Below are positions 1 through 11,069 of a stretch of DNA of 64,000 nucleotides, piece after piece (within the stretch, counting starts at the first letter, position 1; every line of letters begins with the position of its first letter). The stretch is from the NCBI GenBank assembly GCA_963749075.1, contig CAVVLJ010000017.1, positions 864,001 through 928,000 on the forward strand, read 5' to 3'. The notes under the pieces were generated by a model, which made no database searches, was not told where the DNA came from, and saw only the letters and a program-made list of their open reading frames with translations. The position numbers and the translations under genes were made by a program. The DNA is from an uncultured Pseudomonadota bacterium (lineage in GTDB: Bacteria; Pseudomonadota; Alphaproteobacteria; JACZXZ01).

Positions 1-1494
1 CGTAACGCCGACGTACCGAAGGGCCGTCGGATCGAGTTCCGGGTAGGAATCAACCTCGGGGACGTTATCGTCGATGGCGATGACATCCATGGCGATGGCG
101 TCAATATCGCGGCCCGGCTGGAAGGGTTGGCGCAATCTGGGGGCATTTGCTTATCGCAGACCGTCCTCAACCACGCGCGTGGCAAGGTGCCGCTCGAAGC
201 CGAGGACGCGGGTGTTCAGACGCTAAAGAACATCGACCGGCCGGTCCATGTCTATCGCGTGATATTGGGGCCAACCGCGCGGCGTGCCGCATCTACGGAG
301 TCGGCCTTACCCCTGCCCGACAAGCCGTCGATCGCCGTGCTCCCCTTCGTCAACATGAGTGGCGATCCAGAGCAGGAGTTCTTCGCTGACGGCCTCACCG
401 AGGACATCATCACCGAGCTGTCCCGTTTCCACGACCTGGTCGTCATCTCCCGCAACTCGGCATTCGTGTACAAGGGCAAGACGGTCAGGGTCCAAGACGT
501 CGCGCGCGAGTTCGGCGTCCACTACATCGTCGAGGGGAGCGTGCGCAAGGCGAGCGACCGCGTCCGCGTCACGGTGCAGCTCATCGACGCCGAGGCCGAT
601 CGGCACATCTGGGCCGAGCGCTACGACCGCAAGCTCGAGGACATCTTCTCCGTCCAGGACGAGGTGACCACGGCGATCGTCGCCACGCTGCCCGGCCGCG
701 TCGAGGCCGCCACGCATGACCGCGCGAAGCGCAAGACGACCGGCAACATGGCGGCTTATGAGTGCGTGCTCGCGGCCAAGGTGCTGCACCACCGCTCGGT
801 CCGGGAGGACAACGCCGAGGCGCAGCGCCTGCTCGACCGTGCGCTTGCGCTCGACCCGAACTATGCCCATGCTCACGCCTGGAAGGCATGCGTGCTGGGC
901 CAGGCGTGGACCTATGGATGGTGCGCGGATCGTGACGCCACCTTCCAGCAGGTGGCCGAGGAGTTGGAGATCGCTCTGGCACTCGACGACAACGACAGCG
1001 ACGTGCACCGCGTCCTCGCCGCAGTGAGCCTGGTACACGACAATCACGACAAGGCCGCGTACCATCAGGAGCGGGCGCTCGCACTCAATCCCAACTACGA
1101 CCTCGTCGTGGTGCAGCAGGGCGAACTTCTGACGTGGCTGGGGCGGCCGGAGGAGGGCATCGATTGGATCAAGAAGGCGATGCGCCTCAACCCGTACCAC
1201 CCCGAGCGCTTCTGGAATCACCTGGGCCGGGCGTATTTTATGGCGCGTCGCTACGCCGAGGCGGTCGAGGCTTTCAGTCGCATCACCAGGCCGGATCACA
1301 CGCATCACGCATTTCTCGCGGCCTCCTTGGCTCAGATGGACGACCAGACCGCGGCAGCGGCACACACCCAGGCGGTGTTGAAACGAGAACCGAAATTCTC
1401 CGTGCAAAGTTATCTGGCAACGTTGCATTACAAGCGCGACAGCGACCGTGTGCACCATCGCGAGGGCTTGCGCAAGGCCGGGCTGCCGGAGTGA
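1..1494 (+). CDS. Class III adenylate/guanylate cyclase - TolB-like - TPR protein (5' end outside window)
   Basis: Frame is open from base 1: FRVGINLGDVIVDGDDIHGDGVNIAARLE (cyclase signature), then PDKPSIAVLPFVNMSGDPEQEFFADGLTEDII (TolB-like) and TPR helices. Confidence 0.9.
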   Translation, partial: RNADVPKGRRIEFRVGINLGDVIVDGDDIHGDGVNIAARLEGLAQSGGICLSQTVLNHARGKVPLEAEDAGVQTLKNIDRPVHVYRVILGPTARRAASTESALPLPDKPSIAVLPFVNMSGDPEQEFFADGLTEDIITELSRFHDLVVISRNSAFVYKGKTVRVQDVAREFGVHYIVEGSVRKASDRVRVTVQLIDAEADRHIWAERYDRKLEDIFSVQDEVTTAIVATLPGRVEAATHDRAKRKTTGNMAAYECVLAAKVLHHRSVREDNAEAQRLLDRALALDPNYAHAHAWKACVLGQAWTYGWCADRDATFQQVAEELEIALALDDNDSDVHRVLAAVSLVHDNHDKAAYHQERALALNPNYDLVVVQQGELLTWLGRPEEGIDWIKKAMRLNPYHPERFWNHLGRAYFMARRYAEAVEAFSRITRPDHTHHAFLAASLAQMDDQTAAAAHTQAVLKREPKFSVQSYLATLHYKRDSDRVHHREGLRKAGLPE

Positions 1495-4894: not shown

Positions 4895-6448
4895 TTGGGG
4901 TACCTGCCGAACTACGACGAGGACGTCTTCATCAGCTACGCGCACAATGACGACGACGTCTATGCGTCGGAGCCGCGCGGCTGGGTGACCCAGCTCCATT
5001 ACGACCTCGAGCAGCGCGTCACCGGCTACCTCGGCTCCCAGGCGCGCCTCTGGCGCGACATCGAGATCCGCAACAACGAGCATTTCGACGAGAAGATCTC
5101 CAACCGCCTGGCCAAGACGGCGACGCTGCTCTCCGTCATCAGCCCGAGCTTCATCAAGCGGCCGTGGTGCCTGCGCGAGCTCGAGGAGTTCGCCCTGCAC
5201 GCGGAGGGCGGCACCGGCATCCGCGTCGACGAGGAGCGCTCGCGCATCTTCAAGGTCGAGAAGATCCCGATCGACCGCGACGCCCTTCCCTCCCCCATGC
5301 AGGGGACCAAGACCTACCGCTTCTACGGCCCCGATCCGCGCCAGCCCAACCGCAGCCACGAGTTCCGCCCGCAACTCGGCGGCGATTACTTCCTGCGCTA
5401 CTACGAGGAGATGGACGAGCTCGCCAAGGACATCGCCACGGTGCTGCGCGAGCTCGCCGAGCTCACCGCGTCGGGCGGCGCGCAGCCGGGAGCCGCGGCG
5501 CAAGCCCAGCTCGCCGTCTACGTCGCCGAGACCACCTCGGACCTCGACGACAAGCTCGGCGAGGTGCGCCGCGACCTCAAGGACCGCGGCTATCTCGTCC
5601 TGCCCTCGGCCGATCTCCCCTACCGCGCCAAGGACTATCGCGACAAGGTGCGCGAGTGCCTCAAGCGCGCGGCCCTCTCGGTGCATCTCGTGGGCGCGCA
5701 ATACGGCTTCGTGCCCGAGGGCGAGGCGAGCAAATCGAACGTCTGGCTGCAGCACGACCTGGCGATCGAGCGCGGCGCCGATGCCGGCTTCGAGCGGCTC
5801 ATCTGGATGCCGCCGGGTCTCTCGCCGAGCGACGAGCGCCAGCGCCGCTTCGTCGATTACCTGCGCGAGGACCCGGCGGCGCAGAAGGGCGCCGACCTCC
5901 TCGAGACCAAGCTCGAGGACCTGAAGACGGTGATCCAGGAGAAGCTGCGCCAGATCGGCGAGCGCAACTCGGCGAAGCAACGCCGCCCCCAAGCCGCGCG
6001 CGCGGCGGCGCAGCGCAAGGCCGCCGGCGAGCCGCTCCGCATCTATCTCATCTGCGATCCCCTCGACCGCCAGCAGCCGCAGCTCGTGGCGCTGCGCCGC
6101 TTCCTCCTCGCCAAGGGCTACGAGCCGATGCTGCCGAGCGAGAGCGAGGACGAGGCCGAGACGCTCGCCGACCACATCGACAATCTCGAGCTGTGCGACG
6201 CCTGCCTCGTCTATTACGGCGCCGGCTCGGCCCGCTGGTTCGACGCCAAGCTCAAGGACTTCCGCAAGATCCTGAGCCGCCGCCCGCAGCCGGTGCTCGC
6301 CAAGGCCGTCTACATCGCAGCACCCGAGACCCCCGCCAAGGCCGAGGTCGAGACCAACGAGGCGCTGGTGCTCAAGGGGGGTGCTGCCTTCGCGCCCGAG
6401 ACCCTGGCACCCTTCCTCGGCCGGCTCGGCAGCGCCGCATCGGCCTGA
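4895..6448 (+). CDS. TIR-domain protein with two further TIR/DUF4062-like Rossmannoid domains
   Basis: DVFISYAHND...LWRD...ISPSFIKRPWCLREL (TIR with catalytic Glu); second unit VYVAETTSDL..SVHLVGAQYG; third unit IYLICD..LELCDACLVYYG; probable TTG start after GGGGG. Confidence 0.85.
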   Translation: MGYLPNYDEDVFISYAHNDDDVYASEPRGWVTQLHYDLEQRVTGYLGSQARLWRDIEIRNNEHFDEKISNRLAKTATLLSVISPSFIKRPWCLRELEEFALHAEGGTGIRVDEERSRIFKVEKIPIDRDALPSPMQGTKTYRFYGPDPRQPNRSHEFRPQLGGDYFLRYYEEMDELAKDIATVLRELAELTASGGAQPGAAAQAQLAVYVAETTSDLDDKLGEVRRDLKDRGYLVLPSADLPYRAKDYRDKVRECLKRAALSVHLVGAQYGFVPEGEASKSNVWLQHDLAIERGADAGFERLIWMPPGLSPSDERQRRFVDYLREDPAAQKGADLLETKLEDLKTVIQEKLRQIGERNSAKQRRPQAARAAAQRKAAGEPLRIYLICDPLDRQQPQLVALRRFLLAKGYEPMLPSESEDEAETLADHIDNLELCDACLVYYGAGSARWFDAKLKDFRKILSRRPQPVLAKAVYIAAPETPAKAEVETNEALVLKGGAAFAPETLAPFLGRLGSAASA

Positions 6449-6455
6449 GCCGCCT

Positions 6456-9400
6456 ATGCCCGACGAACCGCGGCTCCACCCCTTCCCGGGCCTCAGGCCC
6501 TTCGAGACCGACGAGGAGTACCTCTTCTTCGGGCGCGAGGGCCAGAGCGAGGAGATCCTCCGGCGTCTCAGGCGCAACCGCTTCCTCGCGGTGGTCGGCA
6601 GCTCGGGGAGCGGCAAGTCCTCGCTCGTCCGCGCCGGGCTCCTGCCCTATCTCTACGGCGGCTTTCTCGCCAAGGCCGGCTCGCACTGGCGCGTCGCCAT
6701 CTTCCGACCCGGCAGCGACCCCTTGGGCGGCCTCGCGCGCGCGCTCAACGACGCCGCCGTGCTCGGTGCCGGGGGCCTGAGTGCCGAGGACGCGGCGCGC
6801 AACGCCGTCCTCCTCGAGGTGACGCTGCGGCGGAGCGGGCTCGGCCTCATCGAGGCCGTGCGCCTCGCGCGCCTCGAGGGTCACGAGAACGTCCTCGTCG
6901 TCGTCGACCAGTTCGAGGAGCTCTTCCGCTACGCGGCTGCCGGCGGGGCGCCGAGCAAGGAGGGCGACGCCGACGCCTTCGTCAAGCTCCTCCTCGAGGC
7001 GAGCGGGCAGAGCGGGCTGCCGATCTATGTCGTGCTCACCATGCGCTCGGACTTCATCGGCGACTGCGCGCGCTTCCGCGACCTGCCGGAGGCGGTGACC
7101 GCGGGGCTCTTCCTCATTCCCCGCATGACGCGCGACCAGCGGCGCGCCGCCATCGAGGAGCCGGTGCACGTGGCGGGCGCCGAGATCTCGCGCCGGCTCG
7201 TCAACCGCCTCTTGAACGACGTGGGCGACAACCCCGACCAGCTTCCCATCCTCCAGCACGCGCTGATGCGGGGCTGGGACTATTGGACGGCGCGCGCGGG
7301 CGAGGGACGGCCGCTCGATCTCGAGGACTACCAGGCGATCGGCGGCATGGCCGAGGCCCTCTCGCGCCATGCCGACGAGGCCTATGACGGGCTCGCGGAC
7401 GAGCGCCAGCGGCAGATCGCCCGCCGGGTCCTCCAATGCCTCACCGAGAAGGGCACCGACAACCGCGAGACGCGGCACCCGAGCACGGTCGCGGCCATCG
7501 CCGCGGCCGCCGGCGTCGAGGCGGCGGAGGTGATCGCGGTCGTCGAGGCATTCCGCCGGCCGGGCCGCTCGTTCCTCACACCCTCGGCCGAGGTGCCGCT
7601 CGAGGCGAGCTCGGTCATCGACATCTCCCACGAAAGCCTGATCCGCGGCTGGCGGCGGCTCAAGGGCTGGGTCGAGGAGGAGGCGGAGTCGGCGCGGGTC
7701 TACCGCCGCCTCGCCGAGACGGCGGCGCTGCGCGCGCAAGGCCAGGCCGGGCTGTGGCACGATCCCGATCTCGCGCATGCGCTCTCCTGGCAGGCGCGCG
7801 AGCGGCCCAACGCCGCCTGGGCGGAGCGCTACCACCTTGGCTTCGAGGCGGCGATGGCCTTCCTCGAGGAGAGCCGGGTCGCGCGCGACGCCGAGAAGGC
7901 GGCCGAGGAGCGCCGCCGCAACGAGGCGTTGCGCCGCGCGCGGCGCGTGACCGCGGCGGTCACCTTCGCCCTCGCCGTCGTGGCGCTTCTCGTCGTCTAC
8001 GCCTGGGGGCAGAAGCGACAGGCCGAGGAGAAGCAGCGCGAAGCGACCCTCGCCGCCGAGGACCTGCGGGTGGAGGCGCGCCAATCGCGAAGACAGCTCT
8101 TCTCCGATCAGCAGACCATCACGGCCATGACCGACACGCTGATCGACAACGCGGCGCTCGAGGGCACCCTCTATCCGCGGCGGCGCAAGGTGACCGCGCT
8201 CACCGAGATCGGCGATCACGAGGGCGCCATCGCCCAGCTCGATACCATCCTCGCGGCCGATCCCGAGAACCTCGCTTCGATCTTCGATCGCGGCTACGAA
8301 TACCTCCTCGTCGGACGTCCCGAGAAGGCCATCTCCGACATCCGGAAATACCTCGGCAAGCACGAGGAATGGAACGCCTACAGCAATCTCGCCATTGCCG
8401 AGGCGATGCGGCGCAACTACGGCGCGGCGATCAAGGCCATCGAGCAGGCGATCGCGCATCACGATCCGACGAGCCTCAACATCTTCGACAGCGAGGTGGC
8501 GCCGGAAATCCAGGAGGCCACGCGCCATACCATCCTCTTTGCCGACAGCGCCAGCCTGTTCGTCGCCCTGCATTATGAATTGGCGGTGCTCTATGCCTTC
8601 ACGGGCGATCCCCGCTTCGAGAAGGCGCTCGATGAGGCCAACGCGGAGGAAGGCAAGTTCCGGGGCTCGAGCGACGCATACCTGTTGGCGCTCAACTGGG
8701 CATGGCTCGACGTAAGGGCGCAGGAGCGCGACGAGAACGGCGAGCTCATCGACTACGGCGTCTACGCCGGCAAGGGTGCCCTCTGGGAGCGCGCGGCGCT
8801 GAGCCGTCCGCGCTACGGCGATTGGGCCCGGCAGTCCTTCCTCGCGTTCCAGAAGGCCTATGCCGCGCGCCCCGAGCCCCGCTATGCGGCGCTCGCCGAG
8901 TGGGTGGCACGCCAGCTCGGCAGCCAGGAGCTCGGCGGCGGCGAGACGATGGCGGCCGAGAGCGAGGATCCGCGCGACATGGAATTGCGCGCCGAGGAGC
9001 TCGAGAGCCGCACCTGGGGCGAGGACCCCATGTCCCATGCCGAGGCGCAGCGAAGCTACAGCTCCGCCATCGAGCTGCTCGAGAAGGAAGTCGCCGGCAA
9101 CGACCTGCGGCGGCGGGACCTCCTCATCGCCCTCCATCTGCGCCGCGGTCAGATGCGCCTCGACGTGAACGACGCCAAGGGCGCGCGGGACGACGCCAAG
9201 CGCGTCATAGCGCTCGACGGCACGGTCTCGGACGCCTATCGCCTCCTTGCCCGCACGGACCTCGACGACAAGGAGCGGCGCGGCGATTATGAGGCGGCGC
9301 TCAAATACGATCCCGCCAACCCCGATGCCCTGCAGGATTACGCGGACATGCTTGAGCGGACCGCGCCCGGCCCGCAGCGCCAGGCGGATCTCGAGCATGC

Positions 9401-9914
9401 CATGGCGCTGCTCAAGAGGCGCATGCACGCGGCGGTCTCCTGGTCCTCGGACTACGAGCAGCTGGCGCGGCTCGAGCTCGAGCTCGGACACGCGGGCGAG
9501 GCGCTCGCCTCGGCGAGCTCGGCGATCGCACTCGCTCCCGGCAAAGGCGGGCTCTACCTCCTGCGCCGCGACATCGAGAAGGGGCTCGGGCGAAGCGAGA
9601 GACTTGCCACCCTCCATCTCGCCGCGGGCTACCGCGCGGGCGGCGACGCTCTGGCGCGCAACGGCCGGTATGGCCCGGCGCTGGCGTTCTACATGCGGGC
9701 ACTCAAGACCGTCGCGTCGCTCGCGGGCGCCGAGGACGACGACGAGCGCTTCGAGCTCGAGGCGTGCATGCGAACGCTCTCCGAGTTCCTCACCGCGAGA
9801 TATTCCGAGGACTACGCCAGCCGGTTCTGGCGCAGCATTGCCGCTGCCGCATTCCTCGAGGGCCGCCGCGAGCTCGTCGACGCGGAGGCTCGCCGGGTCG
9901 AAACGGAGCATTGA
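6456..9914 (+). CDS. nSTAND1-type P-loop NTPase, single TM helix, C-terminal TPR array
   Basis: PFPGLRPF..FFGRE, Walker A GSSGSGKSS, Walker B VVVDQFEELF, LTMRSDF, QLPILQHAL, IDISHESLIRGWRRL; TM VTAAVTFALAVVALLVVYAWG at about 7947-8009; TPR-like helices follow. Confidence 0.88.
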   Translation: MPDEPRLHPFPGLRPFETDEEYLFFGREGQSEEILRRLRRNRFLAVVGSSGSGKSSLVRAGLLPYLYGGFLAKAGSHWRVAIFRPGSDPLGGLARALNDAAVLGAGGLSAEDAARNAVLLEVTLRRSGLGLIEAVRLARLEGHENVLVVVDQFEELFRYAAAGGAPSKEGDADAFVKLLLEASGQSGLPIYVVLTMRSDFIGDCARFRDLPEAVTAGLFLIPRMTRDQRRAAIEEPVHVAGAEISRRLVNRLLNDVGDNPDQLPILQHALMRGWDYWTARAGEGRPLDLEDYQAIGGMAEALSRHADEAYDGLADERQRQIARRVLQCLTEKGTDNRETRHPSTVAAIAAAAGVEAAEVIAVVEAFRRPGRSFLTPSAEVPLEASSVIDISHESLIRGWRRLKGWVEEEAESARVYRRLAETAALRAQGQAGLWHDPDLAHALSWQARERPNAAWAERYHLGFEAAMAFLEESRVARDAEKAAEERRRNEALRRARRVTAAVTFALAVVALLVVYAWGQKRQAEEKQREATLAAEDLRVEARQSRRQLFSDQQTITAMTDTLIDNAALEGTLYPRRRKVTALTEIGDHEGAIAQLDTILAADPENLASIFDRGYEYLLVGRPEKAISDIRKYLGKHEEWNAYSNLAIAEAMRRNYGAAIKAIEQAIAHHDPTSLNIFDSEVAPEIQEATRHTILFADSASLFVALHYELAVLYAFTGDPRFEKALDEANAEEGKFRGSSDAYLLALNWAWLDVRAQERDENGELIDYGVYAGKGALWERAALSRPRYGDWARQSFLAFQKAYAARPEPRYAALAEWVARQLGSQELGGGETMAAESEDPRDMELRAEELESRTWGEDPMSHAEAQRSYSSAIELLEKEVAGNDLRRRDLLIALHLRRGQMRLDVNDAKGARDDAKRVIALDGTVSDAYRLLARTDLDDKERRGDYEAALKYDPANPDALQDYADMLERTAPGPQRQADLEHAMALLKRRMHAAVSWSSDYEQLARLELELGHAGEALASASSAIALAPGKGGLYLLRRDIEKGLGRSERLATLHLAAGYRAGGDALARNGRYGPALAFYMRALKTVASLAGAEDDDERFELEACMRTLSEFLTARYSEDYASRFWRSIAAAAFLEGRRELVDAEARRVETEH

Positions 9915-9929: not shown

Positions 9930-11069
9930 TCACTTCTTCGCCTTGTCCGTGGGCGGCGCCACGCCGTAGGCCGTCTCCAGCAGCTGCGCGGACTTCTCCT
10001 CCTTCTCCTGGCGCAGCACGGCCGCGAGATCCCTGACGATGGCGGCGACGCTCGCGCTCCCCTTGCCCTCGACCGCCTCGTAAATGGCGAGCGCGTGACG
10101 GAAGTTCTGCTCGGCCTCCTTGAGCCTCTCCTCCTGCCACGAGTAGAGGCGCGCCAGCTCGAAATAGCGGTAGCCCGTCACGCGGAGGTCGGGCCAGTCG
10201 TGGTCGAAGGTCGCGGTGACGTCGCGAAGCAGCTCCTCGGCCTCCTTGAAATCGCGCGCGGCGGCCGGCCCCTCCTTCTTCGCGCGATGCCGGTAGCCGC
10301 TCGTCATGTCGAGCTCCGCCAGCTTGAATTTGACCGTGAGAGGGTCGTCCTCGCCGAGCATATTGCTCGCGGCAGCCAGGCGATTGAGCGAAAAGCGCCG
10401 GCTGCCCTCCATGAGCTGAGCGTTCTTGCTGTCCGCCGTTGCCCAGATCTTGAGCGCCGCGCGGTCGTCCTCCTTGGCCTCGTCGAGGCGGCCCTCCTCT
10501 TCGAGAATGATGCCGTGCCAGGCAAGCGTGAGGGCGGTCCTGGTGTCGCCTTCGGCCAGCAGCTTCCGCTGGAGCGCCAGCTCGACAAGGCGGCAGAGCT
10601 CGGCTTCCTTGAGCCGGAGGGCCTCCTTGCGCCGGCTGTCGTCGCTCTCGGGACCGTCGTCGAGCGCTCTCCAGCGCGAGAAGTAGTTGTAGGCCAGCCG
10701 CGCGAAGCTGTTCGCCGCGGGCAGCAGCGCTGCATCCGCCGACGCGAGGCCCGGCGGTGCCTGGCGGGCAAAAATGTCCTCGGCCCGCTTGTTGCCGAGG
10801 TCGATCTCGGTGAAATCCAGCATGAGCTGCGTGAGCGCGGGACGCGGACCGGCGGGATCCCTCTCCTTGGCGACGTCGCCCGCGGCCATCAGCAGCGCCT
10901 CGGCGCCGGCGAAATCGTCGGCCGCGGTCGCGTCGACTGCGGCATCGACGTAAGCCTGCCAGGGATCGGCGGCGGCTGCCGCGCGCCCCGGCGCAGCCAG
11001 GGCGCAGGCCAGGAGGAGCAGGAGCGCCGCCGTCAGGGAGCTGCCGCGGCGGCGCAGCGCTGCGATCAA
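9930..11069 (-). CDS. Secreted TPR-repeat protein (kinesin-light-chain-like repeats); start approximate
   Basis: Signal-like RRRGSSLTAALLLLLACALAAPGRAAAA; repeats such as EAEQNFRHALAIYEAVEG and EAKEDDRAALKIW. Confidence 0.7.
   Translation of the reverse strand: MIAALRRRGSSLTAALLLLLACALAAPGRAAAAADPWQAYVDAAVDATAADDFAGAEALLMAAGDVAKERDPAGPRPALTQLMLDFTEIDLGNKRAEDIFARQAPPGLASADAALLPAANSFARLAYNYFSRWRALDDGPESDDSRRKEALRLKEAELCRLVELALQRKLLAEGDTRTALTLAWHGIILEEEGRLDEAKEDDRAALKIWATADSKNAQLMEGSRRFSLNRLAAASNMLGEDDPLTVKFKLAELDMTSGYRHRAKKEGPAAARDFKEAEELLRDVTATFDHDWPDLRVTGYRYFELARLYSWQEERLKEAEQNFRHALAIYEAVEGKGSASVAAIVRDLAAVLRQEKEEKSAQLLETAYGVAPPTDKAKK

Follow-up and report, generated by a model that had tools for sequence, protein, structure and literature searches.

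A strictly co-conserved gene pair encodes a TIR protein and a predicted membrane-spanning nSTAND1 protein

The question raised by the locus described here is whether an NTPase of the NLR type could be driven by a signal from the other side of a membrane. The locus occupies positions 4895 to 9914 of a 64,000-nucleotide stretch of DNA from an uncultured alphaproteobacterium (contig CAVVLJ010000017.1, positions 864,001 to 928,000; the whole stretch is referred to here as the window) and consists of two co-directional genes, one for a protein with a TIR domain and one for an nSTAND1 protein with a hydrophobic segment between its NTPase and its C-terminal repeats. To our knowledge, the bacterial, plant, and animal STAND/NLR immune receptors that have been characterized are cytoplasmic sensors, and we know of no characterized NLR that signals across a membrane. 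Transmembrane signaling by an NLR-type NTPase would be the unusual feature at the core of this locus. On balance, we slightly favor the view that the locus is a two-gene conflict-type (immune-like) module, perhaps with three genes in the subclade to which the window belongs.

The gene pair and its linkage

The two genes lie in DNA with a G+C content of about 0.70 and are arranged as follows:

4895..6448, forward strand: TIR-protein gene (517 amino acids; TTG start at 4895, TGA stop at 6446-6448), the constant partner, with a TIR domain and two TIR/DUF4062-like domains
6449..6455, forward strand: spacer GCCGCCT, the 7 nucleotides between the TIR and STAND genes, read directly
6456..9914, forward strand: gene for a putative nSTAND1-transmembrane-repeat receptor (1152 amino acids; ATG at 6456, stop at 9912-9914)

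Translated from the TTG codon, the TIR protein has the N terminus M-G-Y-L-P, which is also that of its homologues. Its family is large. Over the full length, more than 700 clusters (formed at 90% identity) are 48-65% identical to it, and among representatives at the 50% identity level, about 2,120 reach an E value of 1e-30 or better.

The TIR and nSTAND1 genes are strictly co-conserved, a point that an earlier, sequence-only reading of the window had put forward for checking. We compared 56 related loci, 6 of them genomic (from Xanthobacteraceae and other alphaproteobacterial metagenome-assembled genomes) and 50 metagenomic. An nSTAND1 gene follows the TIR gene, at a computed spacing of 2-35 nucleotides, in all 44 loci in which the TIR gene is complete and the sequence downstream is 100 nucleotides or longer; the remaining 12 loci have a cut gene or at most 86 nucleotides downstream. 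The linkage is kept in distant members of the family, where the identity of the TIR protein falls to 35% (locus L057) and 26% (locus L063). The distribution of the pair is patchy, and the gene was not found in 60 relatives or in 400 other genomes sampled evenly across the class (336 of high quality).

The predicted membrane segment and outer domain of the STAND protein

The STAND protein is made up of four parts:

6480..7727, forward strand: NTPase module of the nSTAND1 type (residues 9-424) with intact Walker A (GSGKSS) and Walker B (VDQFEE) motifs, from Pfam and alignment
7728..7946, forward strand: helical juxtamembrane region, conserved, with an Arg-rich end (RRRNEALRRARR), from alignment
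7947..8012, forward strand: predicted single transmembrane helix (residues 498-519), from hydropathy, conservation, and charge bias
8013..9911, forward strand: C-terminal domain (residues 520-1152, 633 amino acids), TPR-like on weak TPR matches and predicted to be periplasmic

nSTAND1 has been defined as a central NTPase of counter-invader systems (eLife 2021;10:e70394). The Pfam model of this domain (PF20703) matches residues 9 to 424 of the STAND protein with 339.7 bits against a cut-off of 27.1, covering profile positions 1 to 369 of 379, and a profile search of the genome returned identical coordinates. Since the match begins at residue 9 with the first position of the profile, the protein has no N-terminal effector. 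The sequence-only reading had described a STAND gene that begins at its NTPase, 7 nucleotides behind the TIR gene, and both parts of that description were borne out. The effector-free N terminus is also found in 19 aligned homologues, where it reads M-x-x-E-P-x-x-H/N-P-F-P-G-L-R, and the residues of Walker A (G51-S52-G53-K54-S55) and Walker B (D151-Q152-F153-E154-E155) are invariant in 20/20 sequences.

Behind the NTPase and the juxtamembrane region, residues 498-519 form an uncharged hydrophobic stretch, VTAAVTFALAVVALLVVYAWGQ, with a mean Kyte-Doolittle value of 2.5 over 19 residues; 7 of the 15 residues that precede it are lysine or arginine. Such a segment is a constant feature of the family. 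Among 25 partner proteins of more than 560 amino acids (that of the window and those of 24 loci, some of them near-duplicates), every one has, between positions 480 and 535, a single uncharged stretch that is 19-30 residues long and flanked on both sides by charged residues, and while the position of this segment is conserved, its sequence is not. When the 15 residues on either side of the segment were compared in 22 non-duplicate proteins, the mean number of lysine and arginine residues was 5.8 before and 3.3 after it, with the number before being higher in 20 of the 22 proteins, equal in 2, and lower in none; the proteins are kin, and these counts are thus not independent. Because the NTPase needs cytoplasmic nucleotide and is followed by a single predicted helix, the C-terminal repeats would lie outside. 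The STAND protein is, as judged from these sequence features, most likely a type-II single-pass protein (N terminus inside, C terminus outside) with a periplasmic repeat domain.

The hydrophobic segment could instead be a buried helix or a peripheral anchor that does not cross the membrane, in which case the repeats would be cytoplasmic, as in an ordinary Avs or NLR protein. An uncharged stretch that keeps its position and its charged brackets in 25/25 proteins while its sequence is free to change is hard to reconcile with such an arrangement, as are the consistency of the charge bias and the gene for a secreted protein that is co-located with the pair in one subclade, and we regard it as very improbable.

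The domain beyond the membrane segment varies greatly between loci. Up to the helix, the proteins of 21/21 compared loci share 52-75% identity with the window protein. Beyond the helix, homology covers most of the sequence or the whole of it in only 6 of these 21 loci (L009, L012, L016, L036, L046, and L047; 31-47% identity), with the outer domain of L016 being ended early by the end of its contig; in the other 15, this part has at most one TPR in common with the window protein, or nothing. According to Pfam, the outer parts found elsewhere are canonical TPR arrays of varied length, regions free of matches, and, in L057, a WD40 propeller, and the total length of the partner proteins ranges from 742 to 1539 amino acids. 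The outer-domain type of the window was found on nSTAND1 proteins only, with 9 full-length relatives in proteins of 633-2016 amino acids. These data support the view that the post-membrane domain varies in the manner of a sensor, the protein being constant inside and variable outside.

The nature of the window's own outer domain is less distinct. A whole-protein Pfam pass gave TPR_17 (31.3 bits, cut-off 24.4) and TPR_2 (30.5 bits, cut-off 27), and since these matches are scattered and no single repeat passes its cut-off by itself, TPR-like is a fair but weakly supported label. An Atlas look-up of this domain returned generic TPR clusters only (0.87-0.90), which is a lead only. A single transmembrane helix followed by about 630 TPR-like residues had been predicted; the one segment and the 633 residues behind it agree with this prediction, and the TPR character is its weaker half.

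The TIR protein and the proposed mechanism

An AlphaFold model of the TIR protein, built from an alignment of 28 sequences (mean pLDDT 86), has three alpha/beta domains, with which the single TIR domain assumed for the effector in the sequence-only reading has to be given up:

4895..5479, forward strand: domain 1 (residues 1-195), TIR fold with WCLRE(95)L, from Foldseek and the invariant W91 and E95
5504..5980, forward strand: domain 2 (residues 204-362), DUF4062/NIR-like, with a TIR / nucleoside deoxyribosyltransferase-like fold, from VIA-align and a sub-threshold Pfam match
6020..6445, forward strand: domain 3 (residues 376-517), flavodoxin-like alpha/beta, TIR-like or receiver-like, from the model and VIA-align

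Domain 1 is a TIR domain with the WCLREL motif, as had been claimed. Pfam TIR_2 (PF13676) matches residues 11-100 with 44.2 bits (cut-off 28; E value of 3.1e-11), and a Foldseek search with the whole model matched the TIR domains of the plant NLRs RPP1 and RUN1 and of SPARTA with a probability of 1.00. Within the motif W91-C92-L93-R94-E95-L96, W91 and E95 are invariant in 28/28 and 20/20 aligned homologues in two alignments. The position of E95 is what we take to be that of the catalytic glutamate of TIR enzymes, and the passages of the TIR/DUF4062 preprints agree.

For the other two domains, a separate model (pLDDT 91) was aligned by VIA-align to 48,161 PDB representatives. The nearest folds to domain 2 are the CMP hydrolase MilB (Z 11.4; root mean square deviation 3.6, 134 aligned residues), RCL (11.1), the MAL TIR domain (11.0), and SEFIR (11.0), and Pfam DUF4062 (PF13271) matches domain 2 with 19.3 bits and an E value of 1.3e-3, below its cut-off of 24.7. 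A precomputed PF13271 match is present on some homologues of the TIR protein, and the Atlas clusters nearest to domains 2 and 3 carry DUF4062 on 17-65% of their members. DUF4062 has been described as a TIR-like NADase in phage defense and in human TEP1 (2026 preprints 10.64898/2026.09.04.749371 and 10.64898/2026.05.01.722283), and the NIR preprint names the same fold neighborhood, that is, MilB, RCL, and TIR. The DUF4062/NIR NADases (Swarozyc, NIR-Avs2, and TEP1) differ from domain 2 in that the latter follows a classical TIR domain as the middle one of three tandem domains, its Pfam score stays under the cut-off, and no catalytic glutamate could be located in it. Acidic residues conserved in domain 2 are E212, E275, and D288. 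For domain 3, the RPS4 TIR domain (Z 11.0) is tied with receiver domains and small GTPases (Z 10-10.8), and domain 3 is consequently assigned to no single class, being TIR-like or receiver-like. Foldseek with the two-domain model was dominated by tandem Rossmann-like/receiver proteins such as PleD; it was uninformative and has been superseded by VIA-align. In hhalign comparisons, domains 2 and 3 aligned over 114 columns with an E value of just 0.13, and no sequence relationship was detected between domains 1 and 2 or between domains 1 and 3, so that the kinship of the three domains is a matter of fold alone. Proteins resembling domains 2 and 3 also occur on their own, in Atlas clusters of 250-340 amino acids.

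It is conceivable that the TIR-type domains are non-catalytic scaffolds that serve only higher-order assembly on the activated STAND protein, the real effector being encoded elsewhere or absent. TIR domains that are inactive (TIR-FT and FxsC-C) have been proposed to act in multimerization in TIR-ParA systems (10.64898/2026.10.19.760177), and no catalytic residue could be demonstrated in domains 2 and 3. However, the glutamate of the WxxxE motif in domain 1 is invariant in every aligned homologue, and the loci contain no third conserved cytoplasmic gene, which makes purely structural domains quite unlikely.

A natural fusion provides a view of how the two proteins may relate. P0127 (1291 amino acids) carries a TIR domain, domain 2, nSTAND1 (374-805), a hydrophobic segment at about residue 876, and WD40 repeats on one chain, so that the TIR module is placed where the effector of a STAND protein would be. 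A second candidate, P0128 (1465 amino acids), has a low-complexity, Arg-rich region at residues ~400-510, where domain 3 is expected; it may be a frameshifted gene call and was not counted. The module of TIR domain, domain 2, and domain 3 is also found at the C terminus of longer proteins (P0124, P0125, P0126, and others, of 640-840 and 970-1450 amino acids), one of which has an N-terminal AAA-type ATPase.

The order of events could also be reversed. In Thoeris, the signal is produced by the TIR gene, and many of the effectors span the membrane (10.64898/2025.12.03.692087), and by this logic the TIR protein of the locus would be sensor and signal maker, and the membrane-bound STAND protein would be the effector, acting, for example, by membrane damage through its oligomerized helices. 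ThsB models do match domain 1, albeit weakly (E value of 0.007), and the NCBIfam model ThcB4 scores 14.7 bits, with a cut-off of 220. The locus nevertheless does not fit the definition of Thoeris, as there is no SLOG- or Macro-type domain on the partner of the TIR protein. More generally, Pfam gave no match on the STAND protein to the nucleotide-signal-binding domains SLOG, Macro, SAVED, and STING. The large outer domain varies as a sensor would, the TIR module takes the effector position in P0127, and one helix per subunit would make a poor pore former. We consider the reversed order unlikely.

We return to the arrangement in which the STAND protein senses and the TIR protein acts. A complex of STAND residues 1-478 with the TIR protein was predicted from alignments drawn from the same loci, together with three controls. 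The ipSAE score was 0.57, compared with 0.00 for the best control, giving a verdict of weak support; the runs share at least 96% of their contacts, and the pLDDT of the partner is at least 81. In the calibration of this procedure, 116 of 157 solved complexes and 2 of 215 mismatched pairs attained the mark, with just 18 of the 157 complexes, and both mismatches, at 0.60 or below. The outline of a membrane-anchored STAND protein that works with a TIR protein in trans, as first suggested from the sequence, fits the segment present in 25/25 proteins, the charge bias, the linkage, and the fused form, and the complex prediction lends it weak support.

The following mechanism can be envisaged. The STAND protein would be a type-II inner-membrane protein with a cytoplasmic nSTAND1 NTPase, a helical stalk, a transmembrane helix, and variable periplasmic repeats (TPR, or WD40 in a distant relative), and the TIR protein would be its constant cytoplasmic partner, standing in for the N-terminal effector of single-chain STAND/NLR proteins. 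The periplasmic repeats would read an envelope ligand or perturbation, possibly with a secreted TPR protein encoded downstream, and the change would be relayed via the helix to the NTPase. The NTPase would then swap its nucleotide and oligomerize beneath the membrane, and the oligomer would gather the tri-domain TIR protein. Finally, the active site of the TIR domain, which depends on contacts between TIR domains, would hydrolyze NAD+ or make an ADP-ribose-derived signal, leading to growth arrest or death. As a putative NADase, the TIR protein would hydrolyze or cyclize NAD+. In its most extended form, the proposal is that a widespread NLR-like family of soil bacteria spans the inner membrane and detects envelope attack (phage entry, toxins, or cell wall damage) through swappable periplasmic TPR or WD40 domains, in some lineages together with a secreted TPR co-receptor, and that nSTAND1 nucleates the protein with three TIR-type domains into an NAD+-consuming assembly. 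We put this extended form forward tentatively and think it doubtful that all of its parts will hold.

If the sensor does lie outside the cytoplasm, NLR-type switches can be driven across a membrane, and bacteria could sense an attack before foreign proteins are present in the cytoplasm, or without them. A large family with constant cytoplasmic parts and exchangeable outer domains would also be well suited to domain-swap work, and the tri-domain partner could show how inactive TIR-type domains shape the assembly of an active one.

The role of the pair may, however, lie outside immunity. The STAND switch could report a periplasmic cue such as a nutrient, the state of the cell wall, or a partner cell, with the TIR-like protein acting as an adaptor or second-messenger enzyme of ordinary physiology. 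STAND proteins also serve as regulators in bacteria (PMC8195603), most genes around the pair serve housekeeping or transport, conservation of the cytoplasmic parts is high, and a gene for a secreted TPR partner recalls the accessory periplasmic proteins of sensory systems. Against this stand the very patchy distribution (0/400 genomes in the class), flanks that differ among loci, the swapping of whole outer domains, and the lack of a DNA-binding or other output domain. In addition, TIR and DUF4062 domains are known as NADase effectors of STAND/Avs proteins (10.64898/2026.09.04.749371; 10.64898/2026.05.01.722283), and their combination with a STAND protein is a known immune pairing. We judge a physiological role to be rather unlikely.

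Several observations weigh against the immune reading of the locus or against parts of the mechanism envisaged above. The support for the complex is weak and may be an echo of the solved plant TIR-NLR structures. The evidence for the topology consists of hydropathy and charge bias. Comparison of domains 2 and 3 with solved structures, using single sequences and a profile, gave chance matches only, and no catalytic residue could be placed in domain 2. The TIR protein and the NTPase are 50-75% identical, which is unusually conserved for fast-evolving immune genes. A relative of the pair was not found on viral contigs, and plasmids gave just two weak matches, to the TIR protein only, on Caballeronia plasmids. 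Among 53 flanking open reading frames of 18 loci that were searched with Pfam, those that could be named encode mostly transporters, porins, and metabolic enzymes, with no obvious defense island. Finally, a check against PADLOC for a named system, as the sequence-only reading had proposed, returned no matching model; the best match was PDC-S66 on the TIR protein (E value of 4.8e-5), and the matches on the STAND protein covered the P-loop only.

Related systems and neighboring genes

The predicted receptor-like ParA systems (PCTM and TIR-ParA) are the closest described concept. In PCTM and the receptor-like subtype (iii) of TIR-ParA, an effector gene is predicted to lie upstream of the gene for a single-pass protein of type II, which combines a ParA switch in the cytoplasm with variable periplasmic domains, including TPR (bioRxiv 10.64898/2026.10.19.760177). 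The TIR proteins of TIR-ParA systems often bear an extra inactive TIR domain, and a downstream gene sometimes encodes an extracytoplasmic ligand-binding protein (10.64898/2026.10.19.760177). In common with these systems, the locus has an upstream effector gene and, as predicted here, a type-II protein whose NTPase switch on the cytoplasmic side is linked by a transmembrane helix to a variable sensor in the periplasm; additional TIR-type domains on the TIR protein and, at times, a downstream gene for an extracytoplasmic protein are further points of agreement. It differs in its switch, which is an nSTAND1 NTPase of the AAA+ type; Pfam found no match to the ParA family on the STAND protein. The same work reports that ParA has been grafted onto STAND modules that are soluble, nSTAND1 among them, and that TIR is in rare cases fused directly to STAND (10.64898/2026.10.19.760177). 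Receptor-like NTPase sensors with upstream effectors are, as an idea, no longer new. A split TIR protein and nSTAND1 transmembrane receptor is not described in the main-text passages of that preprint (10.64898/2026.10.19.760177), nor did we find one elsewhere in the open-access literature searched.

Avs/AVAST and bNACHT proteins follow the same tripartite logic of effector, STAND NTPase, and C-terminal repeat sensor, and TIR or DUF4062 (NIR) effectors occur among them. These proteins are, however, single-chain and mostly soluble cytoplasmic sensors of phage proteins, whereas the effector of the locus would be a separate three-domain protein and its sensor would lie beyond a membrane helix. In addition, no Avs model of PADLOC was matched by the locus, and the clade of its NTPase is nSTAND1 and not NACHT. 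Membrane-bound forms have been noted among NACHT proteins: one bacterial category has transmembrane C termini "likely recognising intramembrane or periplasmic signals" (bioRxiv 10.1101/2022.07.19.500537), and NACHT targets diversified by diversity-generating retroelements include some with predicted periplasmic lectin domains (PNAS 2024, PMC10907252). The FxsC/FxsT proteins of the FxSxx-COOH system are also similar, in that they pair an NTPase-TPR protein with a TIR-like protein that bears an additional, inactive domain of the TIR-like kind. The NCBIfam model FxsC_Nterm, however, matches domain 1 only in part and with 43.4 bits against a cut-off of 130, and the locus has a membrane helix, no ParA, and no FxsAB peptide-maturation genes nearby.

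Toll-like receptors, to which the topology had been likened at first, share with the predicted arrangement an extracytoplasmic solenoid repeat sensor, a single membrane helix, and a TIR-dependent output. They are type-I proteins with the TIR domain on the same chain and without an NTPase, whereas the predicted orientation of the STAND protein is the reverse, a STAND NTPase is interposed, and the TIR domain is on another protein. Given the predicted type-II orientation and the separate TIR protein, "Toll-like" is just a loose analogy.

Membrane-spanning nSTAND1 proteins are not confined to split systems. In L011, an alphaproteobacterial metagenome-assembled genome and the exception among the flanks searched with Pfam, another TIR-nSTAND1 gene adjoins the pair. 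It lies directly upstream (L011:4872-7826) and encodes a single chain with TIR_2 (26-142), nSTAND1 (200-623), a hydrophobic segment at about residue 683, and TPR; L011 thus has two related systems in tandem. The genome of the window itself encodes a second nSTAND1 protein (G000:C17:29346-33611, corresponding to L067:1847-6112), which is a single chain of 1421 amino acids and apparently spans the membrane: an N-terminal domain of about 200 amino acids without a Pfam match is followed by nSTAND1 (209-635), one hydrophobic segment about 50 amino acids later, and strong TPR matches. These two proteins indicate that membrane-spanning nSTAND1 is a broader theme, of which the split form with a tri-domain partner is one version. 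The contrast to single-chain systems that had been drawn from the window sequence is therefore real as far as the split is concerned, but it does not extend to the membrane segment, which is also found on chains with a fused effector.

Two genes next to the pair were considered as additional components:

9930..11069, reverse strand: possible third component, predicted to be secreted, with a C-terminal TPR_12; convergent with the STAND gene, 15 nucleotides between the stop codons
4390..4767, forward strand: XRE-type HTH gene (HTH_31, E 2.5e-8; HTH_3, E 7.3e-8), 128 nucleotides upstream of the TIR gene; a neighbor outside the conserved module

The product of the first gene has a signal-peptide-like N terminus (MIAALRRRGSSLTAALLLLLACALAAPGRAAAAA, followed by DPW). 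Homologues with signal peptides were found at the same place in L009, L012, and L018 only, where the upstream genes differ; these three loci carry the outer-domain type of the window. The secreted TPR protein may be a periplasmic co-sensor, and as the gene was seen in four loci that are close kin, it is a lead only. The XRE-type gene was rejected as a part of the module, having no relative in the 56 other loci.

The remaining flanks have little in common. Besides the downstream TPR gene in three loci and a relative of the BBE oxidase in L063, no neighbor from the window recurs, and clustering of all flanking open reading frames revealed no conserved third cytoplasmic gene; what looked like clusters came from alternative reading frames of the pair or from synteny between close relatives (such as an MFS transporter, 5 loci). 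In L018, a piece of the STAND gene of about 200 nucleotides is found on the other strand (L018:5297-5556). It was considered as a switch and set aside, since the junction is a perfect 24-nucleotide palindrome and the arrangement is most likely an assembly fold-back. At the start of the window, positions 1-1494 (forward strand) encode the C-terminal part of a protein whose gene begins before the first position of the window; it contains the last part of a guanylate/adenylate cyclase domain and, behind it, TPR repeats. Between positions 1000 and 4500, the G+C content drops to 0.57-0.60, compared with about 0.70 on either side; this region holds a BBE-type FAD oxidase gene, an unannotated open reading frame, and a GFA-family gene and may be foreign DNA.

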